DNA of 64,000 bases. It comes from an uncultured Acidobacteriota bacterium (GTDB lineage: Bacteria; Acidobacteriota; JAQAZP01). The stretch's first letter is position 1; every line of letters starts with the position of its first letter. The translations under genes were made by a program, and so were the position numbers. The notes beneath the pieces were generated by a model, which worked only from the letters and a program-made list of their open reading frames with translations, had not been told where the DNA came from and did no database searches. Positions 1-64,000 of this stretch are shown piece after piece. The stretch is from positions 1,088,001 to 1,152,000 of the forward strand of contig CAWIIB010000009.1 of NCBI GenBank assembly GCA_963836075.1. Reading direction: 5' to 3'.

Positions 1-595
1 CCAGGTCGTGGGTGGAGATCAGCACGCTGGTTCCCCGGTCCGCCAGCTCACCGATCAGTTCGTCAAAGAGCTGGCTGCGGGCCACCGCATCGAGGCCCAG
101 GGTCGGATCATCCAGTACCAGGAGATCCGGTTGGCCGGCCAGGGCCAGGGTGAGCATTAACTGGCCTTTCTGGCCCTTGGAGAGCTTTCCGAAGCGCTGG
201 TCCGGCGCAATCCGGAACCTCTTCATCCGGTCGGTGGTCACACGCTCATCCCAGCGGGGGTAGAGGGTGGAGTAGAAGCGGCTCAGTTGCCCCGCAGTCC
301 AATCCGGTGGCGCATCCGGCTCCTCGGGCACCACGCCCACCCGGCGCAGTATTGTGCGGTGGTGGCGCCAGACCTCGTCCCCGAACAGCGCTATCCCCCT
401 CGACTGCCCTTTGCGGTGTCCGAGCAGGCAACTGACCAGTGACGTCTTGCCGGCCCCGTTGCGCCCCAGCAGAGCGTAGACCTCTCCCTGCTCCACCTGG
501 ATCGAGACGGAGTCGAGAGCTTTCCGCCGTCCGTAACGGACAGTGAGGTCGCGAACCTGGATCACGGGAGTGGTGTTTGATTTCCGCTCACTCAT
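1..595 (-). CDS. ABC transporter ATP-binding protein (3' end runs off the window)
   Basis: Manual translation from ATG at 595: MSERKSNTTPVIQVRDLTVRYG...GRNGAGKT (Walker A)...LSKGQK (signature variant)...LLVLDDPTLGLD (Walker B)...STHDL. Start overlaps the GntR stop. Not in the ORF track because it is open at the edge. Confidence 0.93.
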   Translation of the reverse strand, partial: MSERKSNTTPVIQVRDLTVRYGRRKALDSVSIQVEQGEVYALLGRNGAGKTSLVSCLLGHRKGQSRGIALFGDEVWRHHRTILRRVGVVPEEPDAPPDWTAGQLSRFYSTLYPRWDERVTTDRMKRFRIAPDQRFGKLSKGQKGQLMLTLALAGQPDLLVLDDPTLGLDAVARSQLFDELIGELADRGTSVLISTHDL

Positions 596-15753: not shown

Positions 15754-15762
15754 GGAATCGTT

Positions 15763-15825
15763 GGGGACGTACATAAAAAGTATAACTAGCTCCAAGAGCT
15801 AGTTATACTTTTTATGTACGTCCCC
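15763..15825. repeat. Perfect 30-bp inverted repeat, GGGGACGTACAT subfamily
   Basis: GGGGACGTACATAAAAAGTATAACTAGCTC-CAA-GAGCTAGTTATACTTTTTATGTACGTCCCC, between convergent genes. Confidence 0.95.
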
Positions 15826-15841
15826 TCTTCTGTTACCAGAC

Positions 15842-17212
15842 TCAGAGCAGCTTGAGGATCTCCTTCTCCAGGTTCTCTTCGTCACCCTCTTCAAAACCGA
15901 GGTGGTAGAACATGACCCGGCCCTGCCGGTCGATGAGATAGGAGGTGGGGAAGGAGCGGACGCCGAAGATGGTGCGCACCACTTCCTCCTCGCCCTCGCC
16001 GTTCTCCAGGCAGGTGTAGGTCAGGTTGTTCTCGGTGATAAAAGTGGTGGCGCCTTCGGTGTCCCGCTGGCCTTCCACGGCCACCACGGCCAGTCCCTTG
16101 TCCTTGTACTTCTGGTAGAGCGGTTCGAGGCGTGGCAACTCCACGCGGCATCCCCCTCACGTGGGGAACCAGAAGCTGAGCAGCACCACCTGTCCCTTGA
16201 GCTGGGAGAAGCTGAGCGGTTCGCCCTGGTAGTTCTTGAGCGTGAAGTCGTCCATCTGCACCGCGAGGCGCTGCCTGTTCTGCCACAGATAGTCCTCGAA
16301 GCCTTCTTCACCATGGACCGCGGTGTAGGCTCCGTGAAGGGCGTCCATCGCCTCCACGTCCCCGCCGAGAATCGCGTCGGCCACCAGGATGTCCATCGCC
16401 TTGTTGTTCTGTCCCGCCTCGGCCAGGGTGCGGCCCCAGTAGCTGAACAGCGGGCTGTCGGGGACGCCGGCATAGTTGTAGCCGACGCTGCTGCTGCCTT
16501 CCAGGAAAGTCTCCAGTGCCATGTCCACCTTGCCCAGGTGGGCCAGGGCCCAGCCCATGCTGGCCAGGGAGGAGGCCTGGCGTTTTTTCAGCGCCTCCGC
16601 CACCTCATCGTCGGTGAAGGTCCGGCCCGGATAGTCGGCGCGGTAGGCCTCGGCGGTGGACATGTCCAGACCCGCCCGGGTGTGGTTCGCGGCCAGCTCC
16701 CAGGCCTCGCACTCCAGTGCGGCTTCGGTGACCTGCTTGTGCTCGGGATAGGTGAGCGGCTTGGTGCCGGCCAGCTCTTCGGCGGCGGCCTGCAGCGACT
16801 CCGCATCCCCCAGCCGGCCGTAGAGGCCCAGCAGTTCCAGCTGCATCTCCCGGCGCACATCGGGGTCGGTCACCGTGGGCAGGATCTTCTGGCAGAAGAG
16901 CAGCGCCTCGTCCTTTTTCCCCAGGGACTCGCCGAGGTAGTAGATGACGCCGGACATCGCGTATGCTGCCTGCTCGTTGTTCGGGTGATTCTCGACGAAC
17001 GTCTTCAGGATGGGAACCTTCTCCTCGTCGGTCTCCACGGCCCTGAGCTCGGTCAGCATGGTCTCCCAGGCCCTGGTTTCCGCGTCAACATCTTCGCCGG
17101 ACGCGGTGTCGGCCGCGGCCTGCTCCGCGGCGGGTTCGGCCCCCTGTTGCCCGCAGCCGGCCAGGGCCAGCAGCAGCACCAGCAAGGTAATGAACAGGAA
17201 CTTTCCGTACAT
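15842..17212 (-). CDS. TPR-like + TlpA/redoxin lipoprotein, predicted selenoprotein (UGGC, Sec352)
   Basis: Track ORFs 16157..17212 and 15842..16144 are in frame: LKGQVVLLSFWFPT-TGA-GGC-RVELPRL. The TGA at 16157-16159 occupies the first Cys position of the CxxC motif. Lipobox LAGC. Confidence 0.9.
16127..16156 (-). promoter_or_regulatory. Candidate bacterial SECIS hairpin
   Basis: UGA-GGGGGAUGCC-GCGUGG-AGUUG-CCACGC: 6-bp stem, loop beginning 16 nt after the UGA, with G at loop position 2. Confidence 0.7.
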
Positions 17213-50002: not shown

Positions 50003-51901
50003 TTATTCTGTTGCCTGCTTGTCGAGGATCGCCTCGATCTGGTCCATCACGTCGTTCATCACCTTCACCGTGGCCCGGTAGGGTTCGGGGGAAGTGAGGT
50101 CCACGCCGGCCTTCTTCACCAGCTCCACCGAGTAGTCGCTGCTGCCGGCCTTGAGGAAGTCCATGTAGCGTTCCAGTGCGCCTTCCTCGCCGTCGAGGAT
50201 CTTCTGCGACAGCGCGGTGGAGGCGACGAAGCTGGTGGAATACTGGTAGACGTAGAAGTTGTAGTAGAAGTGGCGGATGTAGGCCCACTCCACGTTGTAG
50301 AGCGGGTTGATGGTCATCACGCCCTCGTCGTGGCCGTGGTAGCGGCGCAGCAGCTCGCCGTAGACCTCGTTCAGCTTTTCGCCGGTGAGCGCCTCGCCCT
50401 TTTCCACCAGCTCGTGGATCTTCAGCTCGAACTCGGCGAACATGGTCTGGCGGTAGAATGTGCCGCGCAGGTTGTCGAGGTAGCTGCCCAGCAGGAAGAG
50501 CTTCTCATCGTCGCTTTTTGCCCGTTCAAGCAGGTAGGGGTTGAGCAGTGCTTCGTTGAGAGTGGAGGCGATCTCGGCGACAAAGATGGTGTAGTCGGCC
50601 GTGGGGTAGGGCTGGGTCTTGTTCGAGAAGTAGGTCTGCATGGCGTGGCCGCACTCGTGGGCCAGGGTGGAGAGGCTGTTGTAGTCGTCGACGTAGTTCA
50701 GCAGCATGTAGGGGTGGACGTCGTAGGCCGAGCCGCTCATGTAGGCCCCGCTCCGCTTGCCCTGGCTGGGATAGACGTCGATCCAGCGCGACTCGATCCC
50801 GTTGGCCAGCCCGTTGACATACTCCTCGCCCAGCGGGGCCAGCGACTCGAGCATCAGCTTCACGCCCTCGTCGTAGGGAAAGTCCATCTCCACTTCCTTC
50901 ACGATGGGCGGGTAGATGTCGTAGTAGTGGAGCTCGTCCAGGCCGAGCATCCGCTGGCGCAGCTTGAGGTAGCGGTGCAGCGTGGGCAGGCTGGCGTTCA
51001 CCTCGCGGATCAGGGTGTGGTAGACGTCGGTGGGGATGTTGCCCGCATCGAGAGCCGACTCCAGTGACGAGTTGTAGTTGCGCACCTTGGTGTAGAAGAG
51101 ATCGCGCTTTACCCCGGAGTAGAGGCTGGTGCCCAGGGTGCGGCCGAACTCGTTGAACTTGGTCCAGAAGGCGTCGAAGACGGCGATGCGGTCCTCGCGC
51201 ACCGGCGATGAGCGGTGTTTGGTGTAGGCCGACTGGTCCATCAGGACCTTCTCTCCGCTGGAGAGCTCCACCGTGGGGTAGGGCATGTCGGCGCCGACAA
51301 AGATGCCGTAGAGGTCGAAGGGGGCGCCGGAGACCAGCGACGCGGTGGCGATCACTTCCTCCTCCCCCTCGCCCAGCGTGTGCTCGCGCCGCCGCTGGAG
51401 ATCGTCGAGGAGCATCCGGTAGTCCAGAAGCGCAGGTTCCTCGGCGAGGAAGCCGTCAATTACCTTGGGGTCGAGGGCCAGGATCTCGGGATCGACAAAG
51501 GAGACCGCGGCGCCGAGGGTGGTGCCCACCTGGCCGATCTCCTGCTTCATGGCCAGCGGTCCGGCCTCGCGGGTGTCGGTGTCGGAGTTCAGGCTGGCAT
51601 AGGTGCGGATGCGGGCATACTCTTTGGAGATGTCGGAGATCAGGGCGAAGGCTTCGGCCATCACGGCCGCGGACTCGCCCAGTCGGCCCCGGTACTGGTC
51701 GATGGCCGGGATCCGTCCCTCGAGAGCCTTTTTGGCCTTGACCCATGCTTCATCGTTGGGGTAGAGGTCGTCCAGGTTCCAGGCGTATTTTTCGTCGTTC
51801 ATTGCTGCCTCGTCGGAAGCCGTCGCGGGAACCGACGGTGCGGGGAGGAAGGTGAGCAGAAGTGCCGCCAGTATCAGCGGTGTGGCGAATCGGGTGTTCA
51901 T
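50003..51901 (-). CDS. pepF: Oligoendopeptidase F (M3B) with signal peptide
   Basis: WNLDDLY, WIDVY...GKRSGAY, TLAHECGHAM, FVAEIAST.NE, HFYYNFYVYQY. Confidence 0.96.
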   Translation of the reverse strand: MNTRFATPLILAALLLTFLPAPSVPATASDEAAMNDEKYAWNLDDLYPNDEAWVKAKKALEGRIPAIDQYRGRLGESAAVMAEAFALISDISKEYARIRTYASLNSDTDTREAGPLAMKQEIGQVGTTLGAAVSFVDPEILALDPKVIDGFLAEEPALLDYRMLLDDLQRRREHTLGEGEEEVIATASLVSGAPFDLYGIFVGADMPYPTVELSSGEKVLMDQSAYTKHRSSPVREDRIAVFDAFWTKFNEFGRTLGTSLYSGVKRDLFYTKVRNYNSSLESALDAGNIPTDVYHTLIREVNASLPTLHRYLKLRQRMLGLDELHYYDIYPPIVKEVEMDFPYDEGVKLMLESLAPLGEEYVNGLANGIESRWIDVYPSQGKRSGAYMSGSAYDVHPYMLLNYVDDYNSLSTLAHECGHAMQTYFSNKTQPYPTADYTIFVAEIASTLNEALLNPYLLERAKSDDEKLFLLGSYLDNLRGTFYRQTMFAEFELKIHELVEKGEALTGEKLNEVYGELLRRYHGHDEGVMTINPLYNVEWAYIRHFYYNFYVYQYSTSFVASTALSQKILDGEEGALERYMDFLKAGSSDYSVELVKKAGVDLTSPEPYRATVKVMNDVMDQIEAILDKQATE

Positions 51902-52173
51902 GACGTTTTCACCTTTCGCGGAAGCGATCCCGGTGCGCGGCCGGCGTGCCCCGGCGGGGACCAGATGTTGCAAAACGAAATATCAACTTGATTTTCAGTG
52001 CCTTAGAGGCATTTGAGAAGCACATTTATACCTGCTGGATCGGGGGTTGTCAAGAAATCGCTTGCCTTGAAAGGCCCGGGAACGTACTCATGTGATATAG
52101 TAGGAATTGTTTGTTTTTGTCGAAAACGCGGTTCAAACGCGGGTAATGATCAAGGATTTACGCGGAGCGCACC

Positions 52174-53142
52174 ATGAAGCCCACCCGAAAAACTGCACTG
52201 CTGACCCTCATCTTCCTTTTTGTCGCGGGGATGACCCCGCTGTTCGCCGGATCGGTGACCATCGGCGCCGATGGCGAGCTGAGCCTCAACCGCCCATTCT
52301 GCGGCACCTGAAGCAGCAACATCAGATACCAGGTACTGGTATTGGCAAGTGAGATTCCCGAGCGCTGCGAGCTGAAGGCCATCGAGTTCTACGCCAACCA
52401 CGCGTCCTTCTACCACGGGCAGTTCGAACAGATCGAGTTCCTCGCCGGCCACATCGCCGAGGACCGGCTGAGCACCACCTTTGCCGACAACTATGTCTAT
52501 GAAACGCCTACCACGGTCTACTACCGCGGAGTCGAAGACGTAAAATTCGAGGTGGGTTTGTGGAACGAGTTCATCTTTGACACGCCCTTCATCTACAACG
52601 GCGAAGACCACCTGCTGCTGGAGTTCCGCTACAACGGCAGCAGCAGCCAGAGCATCTACAACCTCGGCTGGTTTTACGGGGGCAGCGACCGGGTGATCGA
52701 CGGCTTCCTCGGGCAGGATACCGGCTGGGCCCGGGAGATGATGCCCTCCTTCCGCCTGATCTTCAGCCCGCTGATCACCATCTCGGCCGAGATGAGCTGT
52801 TCGCCCTCGGCGGGGACGCTCCCCTTCTCCAGCGCCATGACGGTGAACCTGGTCAACAACGTCGACGACCAGGCCCGCACCGCGGCCGGCCACATCGATC
52901 TGGCCCTGGGCAACGGCGTACTGTATGGCAACTGGCGCAGCGGCTGGGTGGACCTGGCCCCCGGCGGCTGGAACCACAAGTCGTGGAACCAGCAGATCCC
53001 GGCCCATTTCTCGTTCTTCGGCAGCAGCGAGTTCCGCCTGGTGGTGCAGGACGTGACCCCGGCGCCGTACAACCAGCCGCCCTATCTCGCCTCGGGCGAC
53101 GTCAGCTCACGCGTCTGCACCTTCACCGGCGCCGTGCCGTAA
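52174..53142 (+). CDS. Secreted protein with CxxU motif (predicted Sec46) and the 122-aa C-terminal domain
   Basis: GGAG RBS, ATG at 52174, signal peptide MKPTRKTALLTLIFLFVAGMTPLFA, then ...NRPFCGT-TGA(52309-52311)-SSNIRYQVLVLASEI, in frame with track ORF 52342..53142. Confidence 0.82.
52312..52345 (+). promoter_or_regulatory. Candidate bacterial SECIS hairpin
   Basis: AUACCAG-GUA-CUGGUAU perfect 7-bp stem (52326-52342); loop begins with G, 21 nt after the UGA. Confidence 0.7.
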
Positions 53143-53149
53143 TGACACA

Positions 53150-53297
53150 GGGGACGTACATAAAAAATATAACTAGTCCCTAAGCCGTTCTAATAATATG
53201 AGATATTGATTTCATTGCGGCGCCGTGCCGATCGGCGTCCGTAACTCTTTTCTATTTAGCAGGTTGGGCGCTAGTTATACTTTTTATGTACGTCCCC
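53150..53297. mobile_element. 148-bp MITE/REP-like element, GGGGACGTACAT subfamily
   Basis: 27-bp TIRs GGGGACGTACATAAAAAATATAACTAG / CTAGTTATACTTTTTATGTACGTCCCC (1 mismatch); same arms as 15763-15825. Confidence 0.9.
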
Positions 53298-53307
53298 AAG
53301 CCCGAGC

Positions 53308-55014
53308 CTACTCTGTTTTTCCCACCTGGATCGAGTGGGTTACGTAGGAGACCTCCGCGGCCAGCTCGTCCTTGACCCCCACCGCCATTCTCTGGAAGCC
53401 GGAAGCCATCACCAGGTTCAGCTCGTAGGTGTAGACCTGCAGGCGGGCCTTTTCCCAGTCCGCTTCGGGGATGGTGATCGGCAACACGTGCTCCTGTACC
53501 GGCGAAAGATCCCCGTTGTCCTTGCGGGCGGCCACGGTGATCAGCACCCGGCCCTGGTGGCTGCCCCCGCGGTTGAGCAGGGTCAGTTTGCCCAGGGGGA
53601 TGCGCACCTCCACCGGGACGATGTAGTTGCCGTCCTCGTAGGGCTGGTGCTGGCCGGTCCGCAGCTCGAAGCCGAGGGCATTGTTCTGGTAGCCCAGGAC
53701 CAGCGCGGAGATGGTGCCTTCCTCCATCTGCCGTGCCGGAGTCTGATCGCGGTAGCCCTTGCGCTGGCGGACGGTGAGCCCCGGACCCTTGACCTTGACC
53801 TTGGTACGGTGGAACTGGCCGTCGCCGGCGTGGCCGGGCCGGAAGCCGAGGGAGTAGTAGCTCTTGAAGTCCGAGGCAATCCGCTCCAGGCCGCCGGCGA
53901 TGTTGTTGGTCCCGGTGATCGCCACCCCGCCGGTGTTCCCGGAGATGAACTTCAGCGAGGCCTGCATGTTGGTCGCCGTCACCGCATCGATGGTCCCGGA
54001 AAAGTCGCGCGACCGGTCCTGGGCATCGGACCCGCTCACGTTGCGCTGCCCCACGGCGTCGATGGTGTAGAGGGTCACCTGGTTGGCGTTGGCCAGCATG
54101 GTGACCTCCTCGAAGCGGCGGGTGGCGTCGAAACTCATGGAGCGCAGCATCGCGCCGCTATTGGGGGATTTCTCTTCGATGGCGTAGAACATCTCCTCGG
54201 CCGCCTTCATCGGCAGGCCGTCACTGACGTAGAGCAGCGCCTTGCGCCCCTCGATGCCGGAGAGGAAACCGAGCATCTCGTTCAGGGCGTCGAGGGAGAA
54301 CCGCAGTTCGTTGTTAATCGACTCGGCGAAGTTTTCGACCCGCGGCAGCATCCGGATACCGGTCCCGGACTCGGCGATCTCGTTCAGCAGGTCGCGGCGG
54401 TCCTGCTCGTAGAAATTTCGGTCCCCGCCCTTCTCGTCGATCTGATCGATGGTGTATATGATCCGCGCGTGGTCGGTGGTGAAGGTGTTGTCAATGATCA
54501 GCGACCGGTCGTAGGTCACCATCATCACCCGGTCGCCCTCTTCCAGCTCCACGCGGAGGAAGTTCTTCAGCGCGCTGAGCACCTTCTTGCGGTTGAAGGG
54601 GTGAATGTTGAAGTTGTCGATATAGATCACCAGGTGCAGCGGCTGCTTTTTCGGCAGCGGCGGCGCCACCTCCGGCTCCACTGCCGGCGCTTCCCCGCCC
54701 AGGGTCACCTCCCCGCCGTCCACGGCGTAGAAGTTGCTGACCGTGGTCTCCTGCCCGTCCACCACCAGCTCGAAATCGTCGCGGGTCAGACCCTTCACCG
54801 CATTGCCGTCCTTGTCGGTGACAAAGACCTCCAGCTCGATCACCCGCACCTCGATGATCTCGGTGAACAGCGGGTCGGAGAGGGCGGTCTGGCCGGTGGT
54901 CGGCGGTGCCTGCTCCTCGCCGCCAACCGGGGTCATCTCTGGGAGTTCCTGGGCCGTTGCCGGCAGGGCAGTGGCCATGAGCAGGACGAAAAGGACGGTG
55001 AGCAGTGGTTTCAT
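53308..55014 (-). CDS. Secreted VWA domain protein (Acidobacteria-type VWFA)
   Basis: VIELEVFVTDKDGNAVKGLTRDDFEL..DG, GRKALLYVSDG, TGG, YYSLGF.P, VRQRKGY. Confidence 0.9.
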   Translation of the reverse strand: MKPLLTVLFVLLMATALPATAQELPEMTPVGGEEQAPPTTGQTALSDPLFTEIIEVRVIELEVFVTDKDGNAVKGLTRDDFELVVDGQETTVSNFYAVDGGEVTLGGEAPAVEPEVAPPLPKKQPLHLVIYIDNFNIHPFNRKKVLSALKNFLRVELEEGDRVMMVTYDRSLIIDNTFTTDHARIIYTIDQIDEKGGDRNFYEQDRRDLLNEIAESGTGIRMLPRVENFAESINNELRFSLDALNEMLGFLSGIEGRKALLYVSDGLPMKAAEEMFYAIEEKSPNSGAMLRSMSFDATRRFEEVTMLANANQVTLYTIDAVGQRNVSGSDAQDRSRDFSGTIDAVTATNMQASLKFISGNTGGVAITGTNNIAGGLERIASDFKSYYSLGFRPGHAGDGQFHRTKVKVKGPGLTVRQRKGYRDQTPARQMEEGTISALVLGYQNNALGFELRTGQHQPYEDGNYIVPVEVRIPLGKLTLLNRGGSHQGRVLITVAARKDNGDLSPVQEHVLPITIPEADWEKARLQVYTYELNLVMASGFQRMAVGVKDELAAEVSYVTHSIQVGKTE

Positions 55015-60679: not shown

Positions 60680-63224
60680 TCATGGCGCCACCCCCGTGAC
60701 CGTGCAGCCGTCGCTGTCCATATCCCCCTCGGGCGGATAGGGCGGCCGGTTGTAGGGCGCCGGGGTCACGTCTTCAGCCATGAAAAAGAACTCGGTGTCG
60801 CCCAGCAGGTCGGCCAGGGCCGGGATGCCCTGCCACCAGTCGGCGGTCAGGCTCGCCCCGCCCAGCAGGTTCACTGACCCGCGGCGCCAGTTCTGGTAGT
60901 AGGGCCCGTCGGCAAGGTCGACATCGAGCTGGTAGGCGAAGCGCCGGGCCTGCTCGGTGTAGGTGTTGGTCAGGGTCAGCACGAACCGCGAGCTGAAGGG
61001 CAGGGTGCCCGAGGAGGGGACGCAGGTCATGGAGGTGGAAAGGGTTTTGGTGGCGGTGATCGTGTTGTTGAGGAGGATCGTGACGGCGTCCTCGGCGTAG
61101 TTGCAGACCGCCGCGTCCCGGTCGCCGTCGCCGTCGAAGTCGGCCAGGACCGGGGAGAATGGATCGCACCAGGTGCCGAACTGAATCGGCTCCTCGAATG
61201 TTCCGTCGCCATTCCCTGCCAGAACACCCAGGGTATCCGGCCCGCGATTGGCGACCACCAGGTCGTCCAGGCCGTCGCCGTCCACGTCGCCCGCGGCAAG
61301 GTCGTATGGACGCACACCCGCGTAGTGGGTCACCGGGGCCTGGAAGGAGCCGTCGCCGTTGCCCTTCAGCAGTTCGATGGCGCCGCTATCTGTCATGGCC
61401 ACCGCCAGGTCGGCGATCCCGTCGCCGTCGAAGTCGTGGGCCACGATCCCCGCCGGGTCCACCCCCGCCAGGTCGTAGCGTGCCGGCTCGTCAAACGTGC
61501 CGTCGCCGTTGCCGAGGAACACCGAAACACGGTCCGGATAGGAGTAGCTGATGGTCTGGGTCACCGCCAGGTCGAGCTGCCCGTCGCCGTCGAAGTCGCC
61601 GCCGGCCAATCCATGGGGCGTATAGCTGAATTCCTGCAGCAGCGGGGCCTGAAACGTGCCGTCGCCGTTGCCCGCCAGGACCGCGATGGCGGTGGGGTCG
61701 TCGTTGACCGTCACCACGTCGAGGATGTCGTCGCCGGTGGCGTCGTCGAGCACAATCTCGATCGGCTGGTCGCCGGTGTCATACATCACGCGCTCCTGAA
61801 AAGTGCCGTCACCGTTGTTGATGAACACCGATACGGTGTCGATCATGTGGTTCAGCACGGCGAGGTCCGGGTCGCCGTCCTCGTCGAGGTCGGCGCCGGC
61901 GGAGTCCACAGGAAAATTGCCGCAGAAGTAGTTCAGCGGGGCATGAAAGGTGCCGTCCCCGTGGCCGTGGAGCACGGAGAGGAAGCCTCCGCTCCCCCCG
62001 GCGGCCAGGTCGGGGACGCCGTCCCCGTTGAGGTCGGCGGCGATCAGTGTGATCGCTTCGTCGGTGGCGGGTGTCGTGGGCGGGATGTCAAACGTGCCGT
62101 CGCCGCGGCCCAGCACCATGCCCACGTGGTTCGCAGATCCCCTGGTAAAAACCAGGTCGGGGATGCCGTCGTTGTTCATCCCGGCTGCCAGCGCCCGGCG
62201 GATGTAACCGGACGGCAGTTGTGGGCCCTCTTCGAAGGTGCCGTCCCCGTTGCCGTAGAGCAGAGAGACGGCCGGGATTGTGGTGTCGTAGGCGTTTGAG
62301 TAGCTCACCACCAGGTCGAGGATCCCGTTATCGTCCAGGTGACCGGGATCGATGAAAAACGGGCGGCTGGCGAGCGGGATATCGCCGGGCGGTTGGAGCG
62401 TGCCGTCGCCGCTGTTGAGATACAGTCTGATCCCGCTGAAGAGGTTGTCGATGACCAGCAGGTCCGGGTGCCCGTCCCCGTTCACGTCGCCCGTGGCCGC
62501 ATCCAGGGTATCGCTCTCGCCGTAGGTTACGGGAGGGCCGAAGGTGCCGTCGCCGAGGCCGGGGAGCACCACCACGGCGGGGTCGTGCCAGCCGTCGTTG
62601 GTGGTCACCAGGTCGAGGTGGCCGTCGCCGTCCAGGTCGGCGGCGACGATGTCGGTGGCCGTCGCGCCGGTGGGGTAGTGCACCGGGTAGTCGAAGGTCC
62701 CGTCACCGCGGCCCAGCGCTACGGAGATGTTGTTGTCGTCACCGCTGTTGCCGGTGGCCACGTCGAGGTGCCCGTCGTTGTCCAGGTCGGCGAGCACGAT
62801 GCCGTGCGGTTCGAAGCCGCCCAGATGGATCACCGCCGGCTGGAAGGTGCCGTCCCCGTTGCCCAGCAGGCTGGTGAAGCGGCCGGCCTCGCTGTTCCCC
62901 GCCACCAGGTCGAGGTGGCCGTCCTCGTTGATGTCGCCGGCCGCCAGGTCCCGCGGGCCCTCCTCGGTGAAGTAGTCGGTCCGGCTGTGCAGGGTGCCGT
63001 CCCCGGCGCCGAGCATCACCGTGACCCTGTCCGCTTCAAGCCGGGCCACGGCCACGTCGCGGATGCCGTCGCCGTCGAAGTCTTCAGCCACCAGGCCCAG
63101 GGGCGTTCCGGTGAGCCAGGTACTCCTCCGGCGCGTCGAAGAGCGAATCCGGGCCGGCAGCCGCCGGGACGGCAGCCATGATGCAGGCGATGAGCATTGT
63201 GATGACGATCGGTCGGGCGTTCAT
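60680..63224 (-). CDS. Secreted FG-GAP/VCBS repeat protein with the 122-aa C-terminal domain; frameshift near 63115
   Basis: ATG at 63224 (ATGA-coupled) encodes the signal peptide MNARPIVITMLIACIMAAVPAAA; the body (DxDGDGxxDL repeats) is in the frame of track ORF 60680..63091. Confidence 0.85.
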
Positions 63225-64000
63225 GGTGTCACCCCCGTGATGGTGCAGCCATCGGAGTCGAAGCTCCCTGCCGGCGGGTAGGGCGGCTGGTTGAACGGCG
63301 CCGGCGTCACGTCCATCGAGCGGAGGGAGAACCGCGTGTCGCCGGACAGCGAATCCAGCTCCGGGATGGTCTGCCACCAGCCGACGATTGCGGTCTCTCC
63401 CGGCGCGATGTTGGCCCACCCCCGCCGCCAGTTGACGTAGCGCGGGCCGTGGGCCAGGGTGACATCGATCTGCGACTGGATGCGCCGGGCCTGGCCGGGA
63501 AAGGCATTGGTCACGTTCGCCGCGAGGAAGGTGGAGAAGGGCAGCGTGCCCGATGCGGGCTGGCAGGAGAGCTCCACGTCAACGGTGCTGGCCAGGGGGC
63601 GCCTGACCAGGGTGAAGATGGATTTGTTTCGGTTCTCGTAGCTGTGGCGATTGAAGGTGACCAGGTCCGGGTGGCCGTCCCCGTTCAGATCACCGCGGAA
63701 CAGGACGTAGGGGCCCTCCCTGGTGCCGTAGGTTTCCGGTGTCCCGAAGGTGCCGTCACCGTTGCCGTAAAGGACCCGGACGTGGTCGTTGGCCTCGTCG
63801 GTAACGGCGATGTCGAGGTTTCCGTCGCCGTCCAGGTCGGCGGTGACGATGCCCGAGGGCATCCCGCCCTCGTCGATGCTCGCCGCGGCGTCGAAGGTGC
63901 CGTCACCGTTGCCGGCGAGGAGCACGACAACGCCGCCGTCCCGGCAGGCCACGGCCAGGTCCTCGTGGCCGTCACCGTCCAGGTCGTCGACCGCGATTCC
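63221..64000 (-). CDS. FG-GAP/VCBS repeat protein with the 122-aa C-terminal domain (5' end beyond the window)
   Basis: Open to the window edge; DLDGDG repeats; ends DVTPAPFNQPPYPPAGSFDSDGCTITGVTP. Confidence 0.9.
   Translation of the reverse strand, partial: GIAVDDLDGDGHEDLAVACRDGGVVVLLAGNGDGTFDAAASIDEGGMPSGIVTADLDGDGNLDIAVTDEANDHVRVLYGNGDGTFGTPETYGTREGPYVLFRGDLNGDGHPDLVTFNRHSYENRNKSIFTLVRRPLASTVDVELSCQPASGTLPFSTFLAANVTNAFPGQARRIQSQIDVTLAHGPRYVNWRRGWANIAPGETAIVGWWQTIPELDSLSGDTRFSLRSMDVTPAPFNQPPYPPAGSFDSDGCTITGVTP

Follow-up and report, generated by a model that had tools for sequence, protein, structure and literature searches.

We analyzed a window of 64,000 nucleotides (nt) from the genome of an uncultured Acidobacteriota bacterium, in which one stretch of the plus strand (52174..53142) is annotated as two separate open reading frames (ORFs), and our results indicate that this stretch is very probably a single gene for a secreted two-domain surface protein, with an in-frame TGA that would be read as selenocysteine (Sec). 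The whole gene comprises 322 codons followed by TAA, and the TGA is codon 46. It appears to found a selenoprotein family that is split by gene callers and absent from current catalogues. The recoding mechanism itself is ordinary, and it is the scaffold and the location that are unusual: if the assignment is true, Sec is carried by a secreted scaffold of lectin-like type that also has a surface-sorting domain, and this points to sediment bacteria using selenium for redox or metal chemistry on their cell surface.

Direct reading of the DNA locates a Shine-Dalgarno-like GGAG (52164..52167, +) 6 nt 5′ of the ATG at 52174, and the CGGAGCGCAC-ATG context is shared by the orthologues L029, L106 and L031. 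The upstream piece translates as MKPTRKTALLTLIFLFVAGMTPLFA, which is signal-peptide-like, and then GSVTIGADGELSLNRPFCGT. By-eye reading of this translation gives a signal peptide of residues 1-25 (52174..52248, +), with a basic n-region, a hydrophobic core and L-F-A at the likely cleavage point; the same layout is repeated in the orthologues and in the homologues with a CxxC motif described below, and the structural model has a low-confidence helix at residues 5-17, in the same region. The Cys43-Gly-Thr-Sec46 motif (52300..52311, +; TGC GGC ACC TGA) has its Cys43 codon TGC at 52300-52302 and the TGA at 52309-52311, after which 276 in-frame codons run up to the TAA at 53140-53142. Gene callers report a 45-residue ORF and a separate 266-residue ORF beginning at TTG 52342, and all database copies seen consist of a 45-residue 'hypothetical protein' and a signal-less 266-residue protein, which exposes what would be a systematic annotation error. 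The initial annotation had listed GGAG, ATG, signal peptide, C-G-T-TGA and the 276-codon continuation, all of which are present, and had noted that the downstream ORF has no signal peptide; indeed the signal peptide is confined to the upstream piece.

The weight of the case rests on conservation of the TGA and of both its flanks in orthologues, because the hairpin that follows the TGA is by itself modest evidence. We compared five distinct orthologous DNAs with 66-89% protein identity, namely the window, L106 (the same as G026), L029 (the same as L107 and G007), L031 (partial) and L030; the full gene length including the TGA was matched in loci L029/L107, L106, L030 and L031 and in genomes G007 and G026. 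TGA was found at the aligned codon in all five, in the context SLNRPFCG[T/I]-TGA-S[S/N/T]NIRYQVLVL, and no orthologue had a sense codon at position 46. The codons TGC, GGC and TGA were unchanged in 5/5 DNAs, and codon 45 varied (ACC, ACG, ATC). Among the 19 codons 5′ of the TGA, 13 were conserved as amino acids (with no Met and no Trp), and 6 of these 13 varied synonymously, which is the pattern of a frame that would be translated. The in-frame UGA is thus retained across the orthologues, and the coding sequence is conserved on either side of it.

The break between the two annotated pieces recurs in the protein database, where 12/12 clusters of N-terminal fragments end with ...SLNRPFCGT and a further one, P0094, ends with PFCGI (13 in total), and the 11 downstream fragments besides the window's own all begin past the break. 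The start codon of these downstream fragments is not conserved, being TTG, ATG or GTG at codons 55-66. In addition, the TGA is spanned by contigs from two other studies (runs X2 and X4), which show no difference from 52232 to 52367 among the rows listed, although they do differ on both flanks of this region. The suggestion that the TGA be checked for a sequencing error was thereby answered, as independent assemblies carry the same TGA. The sequencing runs containing the sequence bear sediment or soil labels (marine, salt-marsh, estuary and freshwater; shares 0.14-0.46; four runs), and no RNA run was among those listed. Searching the phylum with a single sequence located the gene in 3 of 401 genomes, all of one genus. 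A profile search raised the number to 8/401 genomes; the five outside the genus have distant homologues without a stop inside the match, and the Cys pair was lacking in L192, L193 and L194, the three homologues read among these five genomes.

The genome, a 6.2-Mb assembly (G000; 94.7% complete, with the window at C9:1088001-1152000), encodes SelA (488 bits), the SelB-specific winged-helix domain within a 698-codon frame, and a tRNA-Sec with anticodon tca, the sole tRNA that ARAGORN reported with this anticodon. With SelD, the components needed by a Sec-decoding host (SelA, SelB, tRNA-Sec and SelD) are all encoded, so that the proposed look for selA, selB, selC and selD returned all four. Other genes of the genome also appear to contain Sec. 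Two SelD paralogues (C4:17381-18301, +, and C9:892330-893256, -) each have a single in-frame TGA, and a SelW-like (Rdx) gene at C1:743221-743427 (+) has a CGEU motif (CGE-TGA). A Sec-containing formate dehydrogenase was not found in the genome, in which there were only weak TIGR01553 matches, none with stops. A second Sec candidate had been suspected in the window itself, and this was borne out by an AhpC/TSA-Redoxin (Prx-like) gene on the minus strand (~15845-17212) with its TGA at 16157-16159. This gene has a lipoprotein-like signal and a helical N-terminal region followed by ...SFWFPT-TGA-GGC... (U-G-G-C), the AhpC/TSA and Redoxin Pfam models span its TGA (PF00578, 2.3e-16), and a hairpin has its loop 16 nt past the UGA. 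TGA serves as an ordinary stop in this lineage as well, closing the C-terminal domain in 6 of 9 cases.

Wider scans for Sec genes were of limited use. A scan of the window for TGA flanked by Cys was dropped owing to excess noise. A stricter scan combined with a filter for the bacterial Sec insertion sequence (bSECIS) left 21 candidates, among which only the 52174 gene and 16159 (-) looked real. A genome-wide search for TGA followed by a 13-21 nt gap and CCAGG...CTGG gave 220 matches, nearly all in junk frames, as this pattern is unspecific in a GC-rich genome.

Downstream of the TGA and within the coding sequence lies a SECIS-like hairpin (52325..52343, +; codons 51-57, R-Y-Q-V-L-V-L) with a stem of 8 base pairs (bp) and a GUA loop. 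It consists of GAUACCAG at 52325-52332, the loop at 52333-52335 and CUGGUAUU at 52336-52343; the stem has 7 Watson-Crick pairs and a closing G-U, the loop begins 21 nt past the UGA, and the folding energy is -7.5 kcal/mol. Section 5 of a 2026 survey of prokaryotic selenoproteins (PMC13188914) describes the bSECIS by an apical loop of 3-9 nt and an upper stem of 4-16 bp, a G in the first two loop positions, usually with G or U next, a distance of 16-37 nt from the UGA, and a minimum free energy (MFE) of -7.5 kcal/mol or lower. The hairpin agrees with 4/4 of the criteria given there, with the MFE exactly on the limit. The hairpin claimed by the initial annotation is thus real, and the bSECIS check that it proposed turned out in its favor.

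The geometry is similar to that of the other Sec genes of the genome. GGU is located at +23..25 from the U of the UGA, a position that it also occupies in the two selD genes, whose hairpins have a 9-bp stem and a loop at 20 nt; in the SelW-like gene it is at +24..26. Of the other Sec genes of the genome, four were examined, and three of them have a spacing of 20-21 nt. The most distant orthologue, L030, has three substitutions in the stem, and all pairing is kept (A-U to G-C, U-A to U-G). The codons forming the stem are rare in the genome according to an approximate usage table built from long ORFs: AGA accounts for 2.3% of Arg, GTA, which occurs twice, for 10.8% of Val, and TTG for 4.1% of Leu. 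The same rare codons (AGA, GTA, GTA, TTG) are shared by 4/5 orthologous sequences. Synonymous variation was found at 4 of 10 positions in codons 47-58 versus 41 of 68 in codons 59-209, and this lower variation over the hairpin codons is suggestive, though the sample is small.

We modeled the read-through protein with AlphaFold2 using a 44-sequence alignment, and obtained a mean pLDDT of 85.7 and a pTM of 0.74, with residues 1-20 of low confidence. By block, the mean pLDDT was 72 over residues 21-30 and 84-97 over residues 31-200, the blocks covering residues 31-50 having values of 84 and 92. In the model, residues ~26-200 (52249..52773, +) form the N-terminal domain, a beta jelly roll of lectin-like type in which the C-G-T-U loop is located, and residues 31-50, on both sides of the TGA, sit inside this jelly roll. 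The motif is in a loop ahead of the first long strand (residues 49-56), which is encoded by the hairpin. Comparison of residues ~21-200 using VIA-align matched the Bxb1 tail tip (9d93; Z 11.2, 155 aligned residues), the Cwp84 lectin-like domain (4ci7; Z 10.7, 146 aligned) and PHR domains (Z 9.9 and 8.8), and Foldseek matched sugar-binding domains of GH2 (E 1.6e-6). These similarities (Z 8.8-11.2 over 134-155 residues) would support a fold class rather than homology, ligand binding or function. A profile search of the PDB sequences returned nothing below E = 0.07. The model consists wholly of beta structure, with a jelly roll and an immunoglobulin-like (Ig-like) sandwich, and is not a thioredoxin fold; the beta-sandwich predicted from the sequence at the outset is thus supported by both the model and the structure matches.

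To place the N-terminal domain among its relatives, residues 1-204 were used in a full scan of 1.84 billion representatives, which yielded 387 relatives at E<=1e-3 and 67 at E<=1e-10. The domain is present in one copy in small exported proteins, in three copies in proteins of ~560 residues, and in many copies in giant surface proteins, where the repeats are combined with CBM96, disaggregatase-repeat and PKD domains. We then examined columns 43 and 46 in 328 aligned stretches (from the best 150 matches and the earlier proteins), of which 147 cover both columns. Most of the 147 are Cys-free at both, the commonest pair being Tyr/Tyr (8 stretches), and in this wide superfamily, with at most ~30% identity, only 4 of the 147 have Cys at both. 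Four small full-length proteins (P0037, P0066, P0081 and P0085), of 201-207 amino acids, have a signal peptide and PFCG[F/D]C, whose second Cys is aligned to the TGA, and they run unbroken across the TGA position. Because only 4/147 stretches have both Cys, the CxxU/CxxC pair marks a subfamily and is no feature of the fold. Within the PFCG subfamily the partner residue is Cys or a stop, and elsewhere the whole loop differs. It had been proposed to ask whether homologues have TGA or Cys at position 46: the expectation held for the orthologues, which have TGA, and for the closest full-length homologues, which have Cys, and it did not hold for the wide superfamily, which is variable and mostly non-Cys at this position. 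Partial matches to the domain in L032, L033, L039, L045, L075, L077, L081, L084, L113, L117, L161 and L176 were rejected as carriers of the C-terminal domain with unrelated N-termini, and these loci are uninformative on position 46 because their N-termini are unrelated.

Several observations weigh against Sec decoding or limit what can be drawn from the evidence for it. In this genome the bSECIS criteria are also satisfied after 6.6% of in-frame coding positions picked at random (464 of 7032) and after 5.5% of the true TGA stops of long ORFs (130 of 2345). When the spacing was limited to 20-21 nt, the controls passing dropped to 46/7032 and 10/2345; nevertheless, such a spacing is no rule, since it is 16 nt in the Prx-like Sec gene. 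The hairpin is weak, as its -7.5 kcal/mol coincides with the published threshold, and the stability of the 52-nt segment is unremarkable (z = -0.70), with 43 of 200 shuffles folding as well. Rfam at gathering thresholds had no match in the window. The covariation in the stem comes from a single orthologue, L030, and the sample behind the reduced synonymous variation in codons 47-58 is small. On the protein side, the Sec position is variable across the wide superfamily, and a few distant domains retain Cys43 with Val, Tyr or Asn at 46, so that the pair is not needed for the fold. Finally, it is the motif alone that would suggest a redox or metal role for C-x-x-U.

How else could the TGA be accounted for? 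If it were an ordinary stop, translation would free an exported peptide of ~20 residues, and the 266-residue ORF would be translated separately from TTG 52342. Such a pair of products matches the annotation by every gene caller, and termination at the UGA must partly compete with Sec insertion in any case. Nevertheless, we consider it very improbable that the DNA encodes two products. The downstream ORF has no signal peptide, although its C-terminal domain is otherwise on exported proteins and two invariant Cys are located in its Ig-like fold. No start codon for it is conserved (TTG, ATG or GTG at codons 55-66, and L030 does not have the TTG). Furthermore, residues 26-46 are part of the jelly roll both in the model and in the full-length CxxC homologues, and would not be a separate peptide. 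A nonsense mutation in a pseudogene, or an assembly error at the TGA, would account for the mere presence of an in-frame stop, and the probability left to it is negligible: the same TGA occurs in 5 DNAs down to 66% protein identity, the 13 N-terminal fragment clusters break at one place, both flanks are under purifying selection, and independent assemblies and studies concur. In particular, sequencing error and pseudogene are excluded because the TGA is bridged in the contigs from two further studies that differ on the flanks.

Structures 3′ of stop codons can stimulate readthrough, and this general property gives some ground for readthrough of the UGA without Sec, in which a near-cognate tRNA (Trp, Cys or Arg) or a suppressor would decode the codon and the hairpin would be a mere readthrough stimulator. 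This explanation also seems quite improbable, because the genome has the full Sec machinery and other Sec genes with the same hairpin geometry, the context is C-x-x-U with Cys at that position in homologues, and the tRNA-Sec was the only tRNA with anticodon tca reported by ARAGORN. Decoding of codon 46 as Sec in one continuous protein is the explanation that we prefer.

According to this explanation, one mRNA with one ORF (52174-53142, +) would give a 322-residue exported protein. The hairpin at 52325-52343 would recruit SelB with Sec-tRNA(Sec), and the UGA at codon 46 would be decoded as Sec. The protein would then be exported through the Sec pathway of secretion and its signal peptide removed. 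The mature protein would consist of the lectin-like jelly roll, with Cys43-Gly-Thr-Sec46 in its first loop, followed by the Ig-like domain, which would most likely serve for cell-surface retention or sorting. To judge from the motif, the C-x-x-U pair on this extracellular binding scaffold might form a reversible selenylsulfide or a soft-metal site. This would confer an extracellular redox or chalcophile-binding activity on one subfamily of a domain, adhesin-like or glycan-binding, that otherwise has no Cys. We have little confidence in any one biochemical function for the C-G-T-U loop; a redox role seems somewhat favored, metal binding is a rather doubtful second, and a structural role would take the rest of the probability.

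The gene may also represent the visible part of a large family, extracellular selenoproteins of several phyla whose members are systematically split in databases, and we lean slightly towards this idea. Among the relatives, 34 matches start 4-25 residues past position 46, comprising 11 close orthologues (the window's own piece included) and 23 distant ones, and the distant N-truncated P0091, P0120 and P0155 open with M-R-Y-Q-V. We built a tree by a quick method from columns 57-200 of 51 small members, leaving out proteins with >360 residues or <100 filled columns; many of its forks are open. In 37 of these 51 single-domain members the called start codon lies 4-25 residues past the Sec position, and these 37 cluster on the tree. 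The N-truncated trait required 4 changes on the tree compared with a shuffled mean of 12.4 (0/500 shuffles as low), and five truncated, possibly Sec-containing, forms nest among CxxC forms in a clade with 98% support. Such a distribution of truncated and CxxC forms is what a broad Sec/Cys family would look like. When we searched for short N-terminal fragments of the CxxC subfamily, a single Cys-form fragment was found.

Members of such a family may share the lectin-like jelly roll with a C-x-x-U loop and be displayed on the cell by interchangeable C-terminal anchors. In small members the anchor is the Ig-like domain of this lineage, a tail of the type IX secretion system (T9SS) or a short F-G-x-I-K tail, and in one distant member without the Cys pair it is PEP-CTERM. 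P0021 has a T9SS sorting tail above the model cut-off, and P0031 has a weaker, sub-threshold match. The distant member, L192 (G270:C112, minus strand), is a 277-codon frame for an N-domain homologue that has no Cys pair and has a PEP-CTERM-like tail (…PEPATMFLLGTGVAGLAAYARGRRR…). Because L192 ends in this way, the jelly-roll module is joined to several C-terminal anchors across lineages. If all the truncated members hide a UGA, sediment bacteria would commonly perform extracellular selenium chemistry on a binding fold that is not a redox fold.

The C-terminal Ig-like domain of the protein (residues ~201-322; 52774..53139, +) is common to many proteins of the genome. At least 149 further places in G000 match residues ~200-322 at E<=3e-24, as counted from 150 of 232 candidates scored, and in the carriers read the stop comes directly after the domain. 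It is ~120 residues long, has two invariant Cys and a DVTPAPYNQPP motif, and closes otherwise unrelated proteins; other carriers within the window are at 2189-2566, 60683-61051 and 63224-63619, all on the minus strand. Depth spikes at 53025-53098 in the aligned contigs stem from the shared motif of this domain. Structure matches of residues 200-322 were of Ig/MG/FnIII-like type and included RbmA (Z 11.8), transglutaminase C-terminal domains, complement MG domains and CARDB. The models for the T9SS type A tail (TIGR04183 / PF18962) had no match in the window protein. TIGR04183 and PorV (NF033710) were not found in G000 either, which is a weak negative since the TIGR04183 control was silent in 14/14 control genomes. 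The domain did not register as any known sorting domain, whether of T9SS, PEP-CTERM or another type, and it probably serves for sorting or anchoring in this lineage specifically.

The selenoprotein gene is solitary, with a divergent M3 oligoendopeptidase gene on one side and a convergent 568-codon gene on the other. The former (pepF-like, 50003-51973, -) encodes a signal-peptide-bearing protein and is kept as the divergent neighbor in 4/4 orthologous loci. The selenoprotein evolves faster than this neighbor, because its identity across the loci is 66-89% versus 83-92% for pepF. A scan of 51950-53350 for promoter and terminator consensus sequences gave no match. In the AT-rich spacer just 3′ of the selenoprotein gene there is a 34-nt inverted repeat, whose arms (53150-53183 and 53264-53297) are 88% complementary and 80 nt apart. 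The arm (GGGGACGTACAT...) is found as inverted pairs at ~20 intergenic sites of the genome, in two subtypes, and a copy is also present at 15761-15826 of the window, directly after the Prx-like Sec gene. It looks like a palindromic element resembling repetitive extragenic palindromes (REP) or miniature inverted-repeat transposable elements (MITE), and Sec genes are not its specific location.

We finally compared the protein with known selenoproteins and related folds. Table 1 of PMC13188914 (2026) gives 119 prokaryotic selenoprotein families and subfamilies tied to Pfam, NCBIfam, TIGR, cd or PTHR models, and no jelly-roll or lectin-like exported selenoprotein is listed in that table. The comparison with its families covered those having Pfam and NCBIfam models, and entries with only cd or PTHR models fall outside it. 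The read-through protein matched no Pfam family at E<=1 and no NCBIfam (release 20) family at E<=0.01, and 29 family members had no Pfam or NCBIfam match apart from their C-terminal tails. A full-text literature search found no description of such a family, and a paper outside the searched literature is possible. The claim that the family is new, made when the gene was first noticed, is thus borne out with respect to Pfam, NCBIfam release 20 and the table of PMC13188914, with the same proviso on the literature.

In most of the prokaryotic selenoproteins that have been characterised, a redox motif is carried on a thioredoxin-like fold (PMC13188914, section 7). Among them, the exported thioredoxin-fold UxxC/CxxU proteins listed in Table 1 of that survey (Prx-like thiol:disulfide oxidoreductases and TlpA/DsbA/DsbG-like proteins) likewise have a signal peptide and a Sec placed two residues from a Cys, and those such as the one at ~15845-17212 (-) of the window likewise have a hairpin just past the UGA and use the same host machinery. 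They differ in having a thioredoxin fold, in contrast to the jelly roll and Ig-like sandwich found here. The FCYXU-type TonB-dependent receptor of the same table is likewise a cell-envelope selenoprotein with an F-C-x-x-U motif; the present protein, however, is predicted to be a soluble jelly roll with no match at E<=0.01 to any NCBIfam model, that of the receptor included, and the resemblance is one of motif only. The protein thus belongs neither to the exported thioredoxin-fold UxxC/CxxU proteins nor to the FCYXU-type receptors. With the Cwp84 lectin-like domain, the Bxb1 tail tip, GH2 sugar-binding domains and PHR domains it has the fold of residues ~21-200 in common, and in GH2 enzymes, too, the jelly roll precedes an Ig-like domain, whereas the sequence identity to these lectin-like or receptor-binding jelly rolls is 6-12% and none of them is a selenoprotein. 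The CxxC homologues P0037, P0066, P0081 and P0085 share the N-domain (26-30% identity), the signal peptide and PFCGxC, aligned to PFCGTU and followed by R-Y-Q; the atlas clusters nearest to them are unnamed 'hypothetical protein' entries, mostly of Candidatus Fermentibacterota. They differ in having Cys for Sec, and in ending with a short F-G-x-I-K tail where the present protein has its 120-residue Ig-like domain. The two forms would make a natural Sec/Cys pair in one fold, which could be used for testing what Sec adds.

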